From the sequence record OZ346212.1: a DNA stretch of 64,000 nt; one strand, written 5' to 3'. Each line of letters starts with the position of its first letter. Position 1 is the first letter of the stretch. The notes beneath the pieces are model-generated. The model was not told the origin of the DNA. It worked only from the letters and a program-made list of their open reading frames with translations, and ran no database searches. A program made the position numbers and the translations under genes. This stretch comes from a phage. Positions 1,521 to 63,864 of this stretch are shown in pieces.

Positions 1521-3944
1521 ATGAGCATGTGGTCGTTCGACTTTGAGTCATCCGGTTTGCTGGAAGACCCAGATCTTTATTATCACTGCGGCCTGTTTAA
1601 AGAGCTGAATAAGAACCGTTTTATGCTGTTCCTTCCTCTAAATGACCGCACACACTACTCCGAGGAGGATATAGAAAAGGCTAAGAACTTCATTCTGGCA
1701 AAGAAAACTCTTTATAAAGATTTTGAAGTTCGCATAGCAGATTTTTCAGAGTTGGAAGGTTGGCTTACAGGAAATTCTGACTGGTCACCAACAGCTTTGA
1801 ACTGCCATAACTGCTACAGTTATGACTTTATGCTGATGGAAAGATTATCTGGTATTCATTTTGATATGTTCCGTGATCCTAAGTGTATGGGGACTATCAA
1901 CGATCACCAGGTTAACCTGTTTGATACGTTGGCGATGAGCCGAATCTTGTGGCCTGATCGCCCTTTACCAAAAGGTTGTCCGGACTCTGTATTCAACCCG
2001 GTTACTAAGAAAATGCAGCCTGTTGGTCCTCACGGCCTTATGGCATGGGGCTACGCCCTTGGTAACCAGAAAGTTCAAATTGATGACTGGCGCGATCTTC
2101 CGTTATGGAAGTATGTGGATCGTGTATTTGAGGACGTTATCATCCAGGAGCTGCTCTGGAAAGAGCTGGTAGCGGAATCAAAAGGTGTATTCTACGGCAA
2201 ATCTGACATGCAGAACTTTATGTACGATCCTGCCAAAGAGAAGCCGAAAGGGTTCAAGAAGATCACCTGGAAGAACGCATTACGTCGAGGCATGTTGCAG
2301 CACTTCCTGATGGAGCTGCAGGCCCGTCAGGGTGTATACTTCGACATAGATGGGGCTATTGCTTTACGTGACCGCTGCGATGCGTGGATGAAAGAGATCG
2401 CTGATCGTGTTGAACCACAACTGCCTTTAAAAGAGCTGTCAATGTCTCAGCGGCCCAAGTTCCCTGAAAAGCCGTTTAACCAAGATGGGACAATCTCTAA
2501 TAATGGTTGGAAATGGTTAAAAGATAAGCTTGGCTATCCTGTGGACATGAGTGCTTTAGAGTTCAAAGCCCCACCTAAGCGAGCATTTACCTCTACAGGA
2601 GATGTCAGTAAGATGGGGATAAAATGGTGTGAAGAGATGGGCTGCAAAGACCACGATAAGATGGCTGATTTCTTGAGAGGTTATATTAAGGGCACCTCCA
2701 CACCACAACCTTTACCTAAAGAGCTGATGGATCAGGCAATAAGCGATCTGCAACAGAAGCGAATGCCTGACTGCAAGATACCTATGAAAATCAGCAATCA
2801 GGACGACATTAAGCGATACCTGATCAGTGCTGGTTGGCTTCCGACAATGTGGAGAACTAAGGATGTAACTAAGGACAGCAAGAAGAAAGCTCTACCTGAT
2901 GCAGATGTTGATGCACGAGTATATGCATACATGGACGAGCTTTTAGAGTCAGAGTATTGTGACCTAATTATCAACTTCTGGAACAAAACTGATGCTAAGT
3001 TTCAGACAACAGTGCACAAGTTCCGAAGCTTTCCTAACTCCGAAAGGATTAAAAAGGAAGTGTTCGGGAAAATACGCAGAAAAGCCAGGGCACTTATTAC
3101 TTCTCCGCAACTGAAAGATACGTTTGGACACCTATGTCCGAATCTTGAAAAATTGAACGGAGAGATGGCTAAAGATATCGTCTTGTGGTTATCATTGCGA
3201 AACCGCAGATCGGTCCTTGATCCAATCAAGGAGGATAAGGTTGATACTGGTCTTCTTAATCACCCACGTTTGAAGATTGACCATAAGCTTCCTGCTAAAA
3301 GCTCTGGATTAACAAACACTTCCCGACAGAAACACAGTATTTGTGCAAACATGCCTAAACCATCTCCTAAAGTGGTTATGGGTAAAGAGATGCGTAGCTT
3401 GTGGGGTGTTCCTCCTGGATACTTTGAGATCGGTATTGACGGGTCCAACTTAGAGCAGCTTATCGGGGCTTGGGGTGCCTTTGAGTTCGACAACGGCTTG
3501 TACTATGATGTTGTAAGTAACGGGGACGCACACCAAAACAATGCTGAGGCATATACAAAAGTAGCAGGCAGAGAGGTGTCTCGTAACGACGGTAAACCTA
3601 TCACGTATGGGGTTATGTACGGGGCACAAAAAGATAAAGTTGCAGATATGCTGGATATCTCCCCAGAGTTGGGGCAAAGGGTGATCGATGCACTTTGGGA
3701 TGCCAACCCAGGTCTTAAGGGGCGCAAAGAGGATCTGGAGAAATTCTGGGAAGCAACAGGTAAGAAGTTTATCTACTCTTTTGATGGTCATGCTATCTGG
3801 ACCCGATCTAAACACTCTTTACTTAATGCATACCAACAAAATGGCGGCGCATCGTTGTGTGACTTAGTTGGGATACTCATGCACCATCAAATGGTGAAGC
3901 GTGGGTGGTACGATGAAGGTGTTCGTCGTATTATCTATTACCAT
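1521..3944 (+). CDS. DNA polymerase family A, exon 1
   Basis: RBS AAGGAG before ATG 1521; Exo I FDFESSG; motif B KPITYGVMYGAQ; ORF ends at the His that should start motif C (HDE). Confidence 0.85.
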
Positions 3945-10132: not shown

Positions 10133-10330
10133 ATGATTTATCGAATCCGTGTAAGAGAAGATGCACCAGGCTGTTACTTTGACTGGCGTGGGTGGTGGTT
10201 TCTCCACCCAATGGATGGACTCACAGATAGAATGCTGGATGCTGCCCTTTATACAGATACCGACATAGAATATAATCTCTATCTGAAGGACGGTATAGAT
10301 AACGGCCTGTTTGAAGCAATTCCTGTGTAA
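10133..10330 (+). CDS. hypothetical protein
   Basis: ORF track; RBS ACAGGAGG. Confidence 0.45.
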   Translation: MIYRIRVREDAPGCYFDWRGWWFLHPMDGLTDRMLDAALYTDTDIEYNLYLKDGIDNGLFEAIPV

Positions 10331-10398
10331 GAGACTGTAATAGCTATGTTTTATGATCTTCCTGTAGCACCACCACCTGTTGAACCCGGAGAACTAAG

Positions 10399-10824
10399 AT
10401 GATCTATGAAATGCCAAAACTGATTCGTGACGATGCCCAAAACGCCCACACCTTTATCATGGGCAAGCGCATGGATATTATTTGTCATAAAGATTTCTGG
10501 GAAGGTAGTTACTTCACAGAATATTTTGGTAAACTGGATAATGGTCTGCTGATCCAGTTCTACACCGATGCGGAAAACAATATCTGCTGGGAGTTCGAAA
10601 CTGAAGATATCCATAAACTTTTCACCTTCCTAGGTATTAAGGTTGAGGCCAAGTTTGAAGAAGGCGAGTGCGACGATTGTGGATTCTACGAGGTAACAGA
10701 TTTCTATCTCCCAAGTGGTGAGAACCTTTACTATGAAAGCCACTTCGGCAACTCAAATATGCCACAAGGTTGGGATGAGTTTTTTGAAATTGCGGAAGAG
10801 GAGCTGACATACCGTGATTATTGA
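10399..10824 (+). CDS. hypothetical protein
   Basis: ORF track; RBS CCGGAGA. Confidence 0.5.
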   Translation: MIYEMPKLIRDDAQNAHTFIMGKRMDIICHKDFWEGSYFTEYFGKLDNGLLIQFYTDAENNICWEFETEDIHKLFTFLGIKVEAKFEEGECDDCGFYEVTDFYLPSGENLYYESHFGNSNMPQGWDEFFEIAEEELTYRDY

Positions 10825-13099: not shown

Positions 13100-13705
13100 T
13101 ACTTGAAAATTCCTGGCATATCAAGTATAAGGGGGATTTCTAAAATGGATTTCCTCCTTTTGATATTTCACCGGGCTGGATATTTTAAAATTCTTAGAAA
13201 ATCAGAAAATGGATCGAAAACTAAAATGGATTTTTCAGAGTAGGCGCGACAAGCTGAATAACTCATCCTATCGTTTGCACCATATTCCAGGCCACCATTA
13301 TAGATTTCCCACACATGCTAACCTCTCCCTACTAGAACTTCCTCCACTTACCCTTGACCTTCTATGGTAACAATCTAACCGCTATCTTGAAGTTGCGGTG
13401 CAGCTTTCCAGGTACTCGATCTACTTTTCATTTCAGGGCTTGGATTTTCTGAAAATTTTTCTCGATAAATTTCTCAGTACTCGATCTGTTTTTCGTTTTC
13501 TGAATCGGATTTTCTGGAAATCGTTCCGGCTCTCAACCTGAAATTTTTGGGGACGAAATCGATTTTTCGTTTTCAGAAATGGATTTTTAAAATTTCTATA
13601 TGGGAATATTTTAGTGGATACTGTTTTATAGGAAATTGTTACGGAGGGTAATTAGCATGCTAATTAAATTTATTAAATGCGAGGAGTTCTCATTTAGAAT
13701 TTTGA
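13100..13705. repeat. AT-rich non-coding region with reiterated TGGATTTT-type motifs and ~50-bp direct repeats
   Basis: No credible ORF; motif at ~13147, 13181, 13230, 13440, 13510, 13590; direct repeats at ~13407 and ~13475. Confidence 0.6.
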
Positions 13706-14280
13706 ATGATAATCATTCTCGTTTGCAGAATAACGGGCAGGCCCGGTGATTGTCTCCCGGCCCCTGTTGCCCCGGCTTGTTATTATAGTATCACACAGGA
13801 CAAAGAAAGCAAGGACTTTTTGCATAAATTTTTAAATGATAATGATAACCGTTCTCATTTTATGCAGCGCCCATCCCCGGTGGTTGTCTCCCCCGTCACC
13901 GGTGCCTGCCGTCCTTTCGATATGTATATTGTGCCACCTGGCGGGGCCGCTGTCAACACTTTTCAAAAAATTTTTCTAACCTGGTGCGCTAACCGTTGCA
14001 ACCTGGCGGGGCCAGCCTGGCAGGACCTAACTGACCAGGTAGGGGAGAATGAAGGCTTGTAAACCTGGTGGGCCTATGCTACAGGATAGGTAACAATTGA
14101 AGAGGAGGTACAAAAATGATATGATCCCCCTGGAAAATGTAGCTATTAATGACTCTGAGGCTATCGCCCTGGTTGAAAAGGCTATGGCGGGAGCGTTGGA
14201 ACATAAAGAAGAGTACGAAAATGGTGGTTAACCTGGCGGGGGCGGCAGGTGGATTCTATCATAAAAATAATTTAAAATAG
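13706..14280. repeat. GC-rich repeat family (AACCTGGCGGGGCC) and duplicated ~60-bp segments
   Basis: Motif at ~13936, 14000, 14229 (also 20056); segments 13700-13790 and 13830-13920 share TGATAAT...CCGGTG(A/G)TTGTCTCCC. Confidence 0.55.
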
Positions 14281-14283
14281 TAG

Positions 14284-14311
14284 TTGACAACAAGGTTAAT
14301 CATGGTATTAT
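14284..14311 (+). promoter_or_regulatory. sigma70-like promoter (TTGACA-N16-TATTAT)
   Basis: Read from sequence. Confidence 0.55.
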
Positions 14312-20698: not shown

Positions 20699-20944
20699 AT
20701 GAAAAGCAATAAAGGTTATAACGGTTACAAAAACAAAACTCATTGGAATGTAAGCCTTTGGATTAATAACGATGAGTCATTGTACCGGTTGGCCCAAGGA
20801 TTTATTAACGCTAATGCTAATCGTAATGATGCGGCGCGGGATATGATGCTTTTTCTGGAGCTAACCGGACAAGATAAGACCCCGGACGGCTTCAAGTACA
20901 GCACTACGGCGATCCGTGCCGCGATGGTTGGAATGAAACACTAA
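20699..20944 (+). CDS. hypothetical early protein
   Basis: RBS AGAAGAGG. Confidence 0.5.
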   Translation: MKSNKGYNGYKNKTHWNVSLWINNDESLYRLAQGFINANANRNDAARDMMLFLELTGQDKTPDGFKYSTTAIRAAMVGMKH

Positions 20945-21271
20945 AAGCACATAGCCGCCAGATCTCAGAATTTACGTACGCTCACCAGTCTATAGCCTGC
21001 TAAGTATTTATTCCAACCATAGAATAACGGAATAGTCAATACCTGCATAAAATAATTATTCGTGTAAACTGCATAACATAAATCGGCTAGGATGTCAACA
21101 TTTTTCGTAAACAGCTCGAAATTATAACGGTGAGTTATAATAAACAGAGAAATCTTTAGTCGTCTAATGTTTACTGTACATTACTATACTGACTGGAATC
21201 ATTAGATGACTAAGAGAAAGATAAGAAATCATTAACAATGCAATTGTTTTATTCGTAACAATAAGGCAACT

Positions 21272-21563
21272 ATGCAAACGGATGGCATGGCGCGACGGAG
21301 TCGCGACATAATATAAAAGCAGTAACCATCACCCCCGTGATAGTTTGTCTGCAAACTATTAATCAGATCATAGTTGCCTTGTATTTAGTTAATCATGACA
21401 TAACAAGCAAGGCAACTATAGATCTGCTAATAGTTGCCCTGCTTTTATATTATGTCATAGATTATTAGCCTGTTAATTGTTAGTCAGTCAAATCAACAAC
21501 GTTATCATTTCAGTCTTTATTGTTGTTGATCGTTATTGTTATCATGCAAACGAATGGCATGGC
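21272..21563. repeat. dyad-symmetry cluster bounded by 20-bp direct repeats
   Basis: ATGCAAACG(G/A)ATGGCATGGC at 21272 and 21544; between them AGGCAACTAT in both orientations, ATGACATAA/TTATGTCAT and CGCGAC/GTCGCG palindromes. Confidence 0.6.
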
Positions 21564-21936
21564 TTATCATTTTTGAGTAAACAATCTATACGTGAACAGT
21601 GAGGCAAGTTAGCAGCCGATAGATTAGATATTAACCTGCAGACTTCTGACCGTCTAGACGTCTAAACGCCCACACAACAAGGATTATACATACAATACTG
21701 AATGTAAACAGGGCCGCAAAAATGCTACCATACCACAGATTGTAAATTTTTCATGCAGCACTTGACAAAGAGGAGAACTTAATTTTATCAGGATAGGCAA
21801 GAATGTCAAGGCATGACTGCTCACTAAACAAGCAAACAGTCATGTGTGGGAGGTAAGTGATTGTGGTGGTAGGAAATTTAGTTGAAAGATGTGTTATAGG
21901 TGCTTCCAGCACTTTAGCCGGGCAGCTAATTGTGTG

Positions 21937-22152
21937 TCAGTCCAGCGGTTCATCCTCTACTTCACTGAAATCAATGTTCATGGTCTCTTCCCAACCATCG
22001 ATCTCAGCACAAGAGTGGAGTTCTTTAGGGTTTACTCCTAAAGCCTCAGCAACAGAGTCTATATTTAACACCTCTGGCAGGTATGATTCATCAAATTCAA
22101 GGTAAATCAGGCCACGAGTGTTGTCAGCTCCACCAAATATTTCTATCTTCAT
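21937..22152 (-). CDS. hypothetical acidic protein
   Basis: ORF track. Confidence 0.45.
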   Translation of the reverse strand: MKIEIFGGADNTRGLIYLEFDESYLPEVLNIDSVAEALGVNPKELHSCAEIDGWEETMNIDFSEVEDEPLD

Positions 22153-63750: not shown

Positions 63751-63864
63751 AATTTATATTTTTAGATGCATAAATAATACAGATAATGGCATTGATATTT
63801 ATCGTCGTTTATACTAGTCACTAACTGCTCGAAAATCAGTGTCATTATCAGTATTATTTATAAA

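Follow-up and report, generated by a model that had tools for sequence, protein, structure and literature searches.

Replication origins of the iteron or palindrome type, represented by lambda ori, the ori and crr sites of phage P4, and oriL and oriS of herpes simplex virus (HSV), and the ERIC/IRU and REP/BIME families, which This element, hereafter the module, is a conserved and previously undescribed palindromic repeat-box cis-element in the genome of a Vequintavirus, an rV5-like Escherichia coli myovirus, of which a stretch of 64,000 nucleotides (sequence record OZ346212.1; hereafter the window) was analyzed. Like the iteron- and palindrome-type origins, the module combines direct and inverted boxes, AT-rich DNA, a deletion-prone palindrome and variable arrays; unlike them, it has no initiator gene nearby, lies at a convergent junction and is dispensable. 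It shares with ERIC/IRU and REP/BIME a 100-150-bp imperfect palindrome, an intergenic location at operon ends and presence/absence polymorphism, but it is single-copy in each genome, has no copy in E. coli and is far more conserved than its surroundings.

In the rV5 genome paper (Kropinski et al. 2013, PMC3606486), the locus is drawn as a grey "non-coding" box without open reading frames (ORFs). Its authors noted that the change in GC skew coincides with the switch in the direction of transcription, to which they ascribed it, and they anticipated that a bidirectional terminator would lie between genes 163 and 164 (PMC3606486). The rV5-like phages, for which no origin of replication, no packaging signal and no non-coding RNA have been defined, find wide use in biocontrol of E. 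coli O157 and in phage-therapy cocktails; the literature found contains no paper describing the palindromic module, its 20-mers, its arrays or the deletion in phage FV3. A non-coding repeat locus has been described in the rV5-related phage PhiTE, where the intergenic tandem repeats of pseudo-ToxI change copy number by slippage (PMC3475682). That locus lies elsewhere and consists of 36-nt ToxI-like units, as opposed to the 15-16-nt units of the window, which gave no ToxI-like Rfam match.

In the window, the plus-strand and minus-strand gene blocks converge on a gene-free gap of 992 bp (20945-21936), as defined by the ORF list, the GC skew and the rV5 annotation. The gap is collinear with rV5 104013-106618, the approximately 2.6 kb between rV5 ORF164 and ORF163, and is a version of the rV5 box that is 1.6 kb shorter and partly inverted. 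The GC skew changes sign here, the gap being the cumulative GC-skew maximum within the window, and 21001-22000 is the 1-kb bin of lowest GC content (0.37). An initial annotation of the window had noted a convergent, gene-free gap of about 900 bp, which is borne out, and had suggested that the repeats within it form a cruciform-capable origin or recombination site, or a small inserted element with terminal repeats.

The palindromic module and its conservation

Two families of short repeats characterize the module. The first is a 20-mer, ATGCAAACG(G/A)ATGGCATGGC, which is found on the plus strand at two positions 272 bp apart. Copy 1 (ATGCAAACGGATGGCATGGC, 21272-21291) has G at position 10, where other genomes have A, and copy 2 (ATGCAAACGAATGGCATGGC, 21544-21563) is embedded in the invariant context TCATG...GGCTTATCAT. 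These are the positions given by the initial annotation, and the 20-mer is unique to the gap: no further copy occurs in the 64 kb with three mismatches allowed, none being expected from shuffles. The second family is the 10-bp box AGGCAACTAT, reported earlier as four copies in alternating orientation. The orientations hold and three copies are exact (21264, plus strand; 21370, minus strand; 21410, plus strand), with no other exact copy in the window, but the coordinates had been about 2 nt off and the fourth copy, at 21430 on the minus strand, is GGGCAACTAT, a 9/10 match. When one mismatch is allowed, the box is matched 12 times in the window against 4.6 +/- 1.9 expected, a number that 0 of 100 shuffles reach. 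Box 1 (21264-21273, plus strand), which is invariant in 10 genomes, adjoins 20-mer copy 1 and overlaps its start. Since direct copies of the 10-mer and the 20-mer cannot pair with one another, their repetition points to sequence-specific recognition and not to pairing alone.

The core of the module (21256-21459) contains a 152-nt palindrome that is bracketed by the two 20-mers and folds as a three-way junction, in which an 18-bp perfect, AT-rich outer stem meets a side hairpin and an inner palindrome with arms of about 30 bp. The outer stem is formed by an 18-nt perfect inverted repeat, whose left arm, GACATAATATAAAAGCAG, lies at 21305-21322 and whose right arm lies at 21439-21456. An invariant GC mini-hairpin, CGCGAC-GGA-GTCGCG (21291-21305), abuts the left arm, and the side hairpin, AACCATCAC-CCCC-GTGATAGTT, occupies 21324-21345. 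The long, imperfect inner palindrome (21347-21443) carries boxes 2 to 4 in two inverted 30-bp units, O1 (21350-21379, TGCAAACTAT-N10-ATAGTTGCCT) and O2 (21410-21439, AGGCAACTAT-N10-ATAGTTGCCC). The centres of these units are 60 bp apart, and with their GGCAACTAT half-sites and 10-bp spacers, each of which contains a GATC, the units are operator-like. Variability within the core is greatest in the apical loop between them (21382-21407), which bears a 33-bp insertion in rV5. Further palindromes, also announced by the initial annotation, are present: besides the 18-nt repeat there is a 15-nt inverted repeat (21405-21419/21430-21444), and 20913-21456 holds three of the six local inverted repeats of at least 15 nt in the window. 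Compared with shuffled sequences, 21256-21462 folds with z = -8.1 as minus-strand RNA, -8.6 as plus-strand RNA and -8.6 as plus-strand DNA, supporting the earlier view that this DNA is cruciform-capable.

To the right of the core lies a hypervariable indel zone (21460-21535) in which relatives carry different mini-hairpin insertions, followed by 20-mer copy 2 and by an array of GTRAAYAGT units. The window retains a remnant of this array on the plus strand (21577-21600), with one unit, GTAAACAAT, at 21577 and a second, GTGAACAGT, at 21592, whereas relatives possess 1 to about 11 units at 15-16-bp spacing. An iteron-type origin would have at least three like-oriented, regularly spaced repeats; the window has two 20-mers, four alternating 10-mers and two GTRAAYAGT units. 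The outer arms of the palindrome and the zone 21460-21540 are AT-rich, as is the unwinding region of such an origin. A likeness of GTGAACAGT to the iteron of the phage P4 alpha protein, TGTTCACC, was dropped, since it covers a 7-mer and no protein like P4 alpha is encoded.

The module is non-coding. Both 20-mers start with ATG, and copy 1 opens a 14-codon ORF (21272-21316) that is invariant at the nucleotide level, and thus too uniform for a codon test, and is preceded by an AAGG resembling a Shine-Dalgarno (SD) sequence. The ORF opened by copy 2 varies from 10 to 50 codons and runs into the repeat array; a coding reading of this ORF and the array was rejected on finding that differences are spread across codon positions (for example 3, 4, 3 and 6, 3, 2), and the frame is broken by the 6- and 7-nt spacers, being lost at the 16-nt spacings.

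Conservation of the module is exceptional for its surroundings. Among 10 genomes, nucleotide diversity is 0.005 at 21261-21340 and 0.02-0.04 at 21341-21460, compared with about 0.08 (range 0.014-0.18) in the flanking coding and non-coding DNA; diversity is also low at 21807-21846. The variable sites, few in number across 19 copies, lie for the most part in the apical loop and in internal loops; unpaired core positions are invariant as well. Apart from the loop insertion of rV5, the window and rV5 cores are 99-100% identical. These data show that the module is under strong purifying selection, and it is the most constrained sequence of the rV5-like non-coding region.

The core matches 120 phage records, all Vequintavirus and at one place per record, and the adjacent 71-aa gene matches 118. 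The palindrome is kept in all but one lineage, that of FV3, which lacks exactly the 252-bp segment between the 20-mers and with it the whole palindrome; phage V18 lacks 20-mer copy 2 and the array. Outside the genus, no copy was found in other phage groups, in 5,426 E. coli genomes or in genuine plasmids, the sole plasmid match being a 137.5-kb record of Vequintavirus genome size, and an origin from host or plasmid was rejected on these grounds. In 185,579 bacterial species genomes the 20-mer occurs about as often as chance predicts (three single matches in unrelated metagenome-assembled genomes), and scans of metagenomes and IMG/VR added only five further Vequintavirus copies. A search of IMG/VR for the inverted-box pattern returned 25 matches outside the genus, mostly isolated hairpins and close to the chance expectation.

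In one IMG/VR sequence (L033, IMGVR_UViG_3300020577_009303), nine copies of (T)GGCAACTAT, direct and inverted, cluster at 248-635, directly upstream of a 703-aa Prim-Pol + DUF3987 replication gene. These are probably origin iterons of an unrelated element that shares the 9-mer with the window by coincidence, so that the cluster may serve as an analogy only for the module.

Proposed roles: DNA site or structured RNA

Our preferred reading, which we hold tentatively and from sequence patterns, takes the module for a DNA site that acts in cis, forms a structure and is bound by protein, and that may be an accessory zone of replication initiation or priming. The module would act in cis at the DNA level: one or more sequence-specific proteins of phage or host would bind the repeated boxes and the 20-mers, the AT-rich arms would open and the palindrome would fold, and the resulting nucleoprotein structure would serve a DNA transaction, most plausibly an accessory, non-essential initiation or priming of replication. 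A DNA site is favored because identical boxes and 20-mers recur in orientations that rule out mutual pairing, unpaired positions are invariant, variable arrays adjoin the core, and there is no strand bias in either of the two genera compared below. The non-coding GTRAAYAGT array varies in copy number as binding-site arrays do. Moreover, the divergent junction at approximately 59.6 kb of the window is free of repeats, so no rival origin-like site is present in the window.

Several observations weigh against a DNA site of this kind. A convergent junction at a GC-skew maximum is a terminus-like setting. An iteron-type origin would have a cognate initiator gene, usually adjacent; among the 20 flanking ORFs scanned, no initiator or DNA-binding gene lies beside the gap. 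One of these ORFs, 1.6 kb away, is a "transcriptional regulator", and all the others fall into PHROGs without known function. No relative of the Prim-Pol/DUF3987 protein is encoded in the window. The absence of the palindrome from FV3, and of copy 2 and the array from V18, indicates that no part is essential; each part of the module is dispensable for plaque formation. Finally, where a long-range stem closes off a multi-hairpin domain, the fold is more typically one of RNA or single-stranded DNA (ssDNA) than a cruciform extruded from a duplex, and an unbroken invariant stretch of about 200 nt is likewise typical of structured RNA.

That the module encodes a structured small RNA is almost as probable as the DNA site that we favor, which is to say possible and somewhat doubtful. 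The core would in that case be transcribed from the minus strand as a regulatory or anti-defence RNA, starting at about 21442, at an extended -10-like sequence in the right arm of the outer stem (TGACATAAT), and ending at the side hairpin (21345-21324) with its U-rich tail. On the minus strand there are indeed an extended -10 that includes TG and a hairpin resembling a terminator, and a further minus-strand terminator-like hairpin just upstream in rV5 would insulate such a unit. However, neither kind of signal is more frequent in the gap than in shuffles (10 promoter-like sites against 6.0 +/- 2.6, and 1 terminator-like site against 1.2), the U-tract of the terminator is interrupted, and a start inside the outer stem would give a transcript without most of one arm. 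The strong minus-strand fold, the contiguous invariance with variable loops and the tolerated loop insertion are consistent with a structured RNA, yet the same invariance is seen outside the transcript, in box 1, 20-mer copy 1 and the GC hairpin. Dispensability would suit an accessory RNA, and functional non-coding repeat RNA is found in the related PhiTE (pseudo-ToxI, PMC3475682). The multi-branch layout with its long closing stem fits a single-stranded fold, as do the covarying small hairpins of the sister-genus analogue, but wobble positions show no strand bias in either genus; in the Vequintavirus core, three of the wobble-only (G-U) stem positions favor the minus strand and three the plus strand. 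This core is too invariant for a covariation test, the sole double change occurring in a single lineage. Rfam 15 also argues against a known RNA family: the gap and the rV5 gap gave no match at the gathering score, the whole window only tRNAs, and the best sub-threshold matches (E >= 0.14) were to unrelated eukaryotic microRNA and snoRNA families. No equivalent promoter was detected beside the analogous module of phage KE23, and a conserved promoter into the module in both genera is not supported.

The analogue in Salmonella phage KE23 (L053, PP856722; 7373-7608) consists of a 21-bp perfect inverted repeat around a 194-nt multi-hairpin domain (z = -10.8), set in AT-rich, poorly coding DNA near a convergent junction; its counterpart in PVP-SE1 (GU070616) lies at 118025-118389. 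A gene 2.5-3 kb upstream has the same orientation in both genera (rV5 ORF172 and KE23 10238-10462, 73% protein identity). The KE23 module is present in 72 records from Seunavirus, Mydovirus and neighbours at 68-82% identity, mostly in unannotated DNA, and no description of this palindromic module is present in the literature found. It resembles the module of the window in position, in orientation, in having an outer stem around a multi-hairpin domain and in its unannotated setting; it also contains invariant boxes (CCACGATAAC...), direct and inverted, and a hypervariable AT-rich centre with mini-hairpin insertions. It differs in that it covaries, whereas the Vequintavirus core is too invariant to test: among ten diverse copies, both partners have changed in a compensatory way in 9 of the 59 predicted pairs and only one partner in 2, Watson-Crick pairing holds in 561 of the 581 cells without gaps, and the positions that depart from it are divided between the two strands. 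The two modules are equivalent in position and architecture without demonstrable homology, an nhmmer profile of the KE23-type module giving no match in the window core.

Three further points of comparison were not sustained. A likeness seen by eye between the window core and the Seunavirus module (TGGCGCGA...GCGACA) was rejected in view of the absence of a profile match at that place. A Fur site in a hairpin of the Seunavirus module was rejected because compensatory changes keep the hairpin and lose the Fur-like sequence. Synteny by way of the homologue of gp158, the nearby regulator gene, fails in that this gene lies in the middle of a co-directional block in other genera.

It is conceivable, though we are more doubtful of this than of either reading above, that the Vequintavirus module and its Seunavirus/Mydovirus analogue belong to one undescribed class of structured single-stranded element shared across the Vequintavirinae. 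If so, their sequences have diverged past recognition while position, multi-hairpin architecture and pairing were kept, and the class would represent either a phage non-coding RNA of a new kind, perhaps with a regulatory or anti-defence role, or a hairpin-type signal in ssDNA from which the T7-like primase-helicase would initiate.

The variable zones of the Vequintavirus and Seunavirus modules gather short perfect mini-hairpins with 5-6-bp stems and 3-4-nt loops, such as CACCC-GAAG-GGGTG, GTGACC-AAA-GGTCAC and CTGGC-ATA-GCCAG. Runs of them are seen in rV5 (L001) at 3547-3600 and in L007, L009, L062 and L065, and the motif GGCATAGCC recurs in two separate rV5 insertions.

A further alternative is that the hairpins act as a bidirectional terminator, insulator or 3'-end stabilizer for the transcripts of the two convergent blocks and of gap-internal promoters. 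We consider this unlikely. The authors of the rV5 genome did expect a bidirectional terminator at this place (PMC3606486), but in the relatives a canonical terminator closes the left block some 600 bp ahead of the core. In the phage of the window this block no longer has a terminator of its own, two promoter-like sites have come to face the core, and T-rich sequence follows the side hairpin on the minus strand, with AGTTTGT on the plus strand. These combinations of hairpin and T-tract are nonetheless weak: a terminator scan found one marginal minus-strand site (9 pairs, 3 of them GC, with an interrupted T-run) and none on the plus strand, a count equal to the shuffle expectation. Four identical boxes, two 20-mers and 200 nt of invariant sequence are not needed for termination.

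The FV3 junction, and insertion and packaging as unlikely readings

Presence or absence of the segment 21292-21543 among relatives bears on whether the module is an inserted element, as had been suggested, and the segment is indeed absent from FV3, all other lineages having kept the palindrome. The FV3 junction, AACAATAAGGCAACT-ATGCAAACGAATGTCATGGC-TTATCAT, contains a single 20-mer, which is flanked on the left as copy 1 is and on the right as copy 2 is. At face value this could be an empty site, and the 252-bp segment a selfish or relic miniature palindromic insertion into the 5' end of a small ORF, flanked by a 20-bp target duplication. The sequence joined at the junction lends this some support, since in FV3 the SD sequence and ATG of copy 1 are connected to a 36-codon ORF that in the other phages has no SD sequence and varies from 10 to 50 codons; the downstream ORF, however, has no coding signature. 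The empty junction occurs in FV3 alone (deposited twice) among the 120 records, and FV3 is nested among module carriers in the trees of both flanks. Its right flank is 95.4% identical to that of isim, its left flank is nearest to SKEL, nom and NHEP1, and its 20-mer has the T14 variant found in copy 2 of isim, A142, JES2013 and SKEL; all six of these phages carry the module. The nesting and the flank identities indicate a deletion and no ancestral empty site. The parsimonious reading is that FV3 lost the segment by recombination or slippage between the 20-mers.

Other properties of the segment also make an insertion most improbable. The module is single-copy, nearly invariant and without copies elsewhere, so that mobility is not supported; a miniature inverted-repeat transposable element (MITE)-like sequence would occur in multiple copies, loci or genomes and leave ancestral empty sites, whereas the searched phages, E. 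coli genomes, genuine plasmids and bacterial genomes hold no further copies and the only empty site is a secondary deletion. A 20-bp target duplication is atypical for transposition, and a decaying relic would not be conserved beyond the level of genes as the module is. Of the two suggestions of the initial annotation that concern recombination, then, the inserted element retains its presence/absence polymorphism but has the polarity of a deletion, and the recombination site retains 20-mers that are recombinogenic, as the precise loss between them in FV3 shows, with no evidence of a dedicated site-specific recombination system.

Clustered short repeats with GATC sites flank the cleavage region in the pac site of phage P1, and a pac site or another packaging or concatemer-processing signal of headful-packaging phages was also weighed for the module. 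The Vequintaviruses are reported to be circularly permuted with headful packaging (PMC8407724, PMC13211470), and several GenBank records begin inside the gap; record starts are arbitrary in permuted genomes, however, and were rejected as evidence of termini. The module has only 2-3 GATC sites, the gap is far from the terminase genes, and FV3 packages its DNA without the palindrome, which makes a packaging role very unlikely.

A natural knock-out in FV3, a minimal natural version in the window and a covarying analogue in sister genera make the role of the region directly testable.

Rearrangements around the core and other features of the window

The region is prone to rearrangement at short repeats, and its short direct repeats account for the hot spot of deletion and rearrangement in this part of the genome. 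Left of the core, a single copy of ATAGCCGCC (20951-20959) is the scar of a 2,825-bp deletion relative to phage FFH2, in which ATAGCCGCC stands at both ends of the missing segment of about five genes and a terminator. In relatives, the GTRAAYAGT array is followed on the right by an RTGTCA array, a 170-bp segment B, a 1.07-kb segment C and a strong sigma-70-like site by the rightward gene block. In the window, 1,317 bp comprising the rest of the arrays and segment C are replaced by 160 bp of inverted segment B (21607-21777), which is inverted relative to all 15 relatives examined and has 1-7 bp of microhomology at its junctions. The combination of the 2,825-bp deletion with the inverted segment B is shared by no database record. 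Although 2.8 kb have gone from the left side of the core and 1.3 kb from the right, the phage of the window has kept the module at 99-100% identity.

Segment B contains a promoter-like sequence on the minus strand, TTGTCA-18-TACAAT. The best sigma-70-like site of the gap, TTGACA-16-TAAAAT with TG (11/12; 21782-21809, minus strand), is conserved in rV5 and points towards the core in the phage of the window. Segment C of rV5 (L001, 4025-5095), which the window lacks, lies between two facing promoter-like sites and contains G/C-rich hairpins with no Rfam match.

Away from the gap, a 30-nt inverted repeat (87% complementary, with a 32-nt spacer) lies at 63770-63861 between the tRNA-Tyr and tRNA-Ser genes. 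A second ORF-poor stretch, 13100-14300, contains two Fur-box-like sequences (13702-13725 and 13836-13860), the latter with at most three mismatches to the 19-mer consensus GATAATGATAATCATTATC, for which 0.01 matches are expected by chance. Both sites are followed by GC-rich, hairpin-prone DNA with no Rfam match, and judged by their sequence they could be iron-responsive promoters or mark small RNAs. In addition, approximately 20 GenBank records of Vequintavirus genomes, with more than 94% identity to E. coli phages, bear the name "Campylobacter phage" (MG0656xx, UNVERIFIED); this host label is likely wrong.

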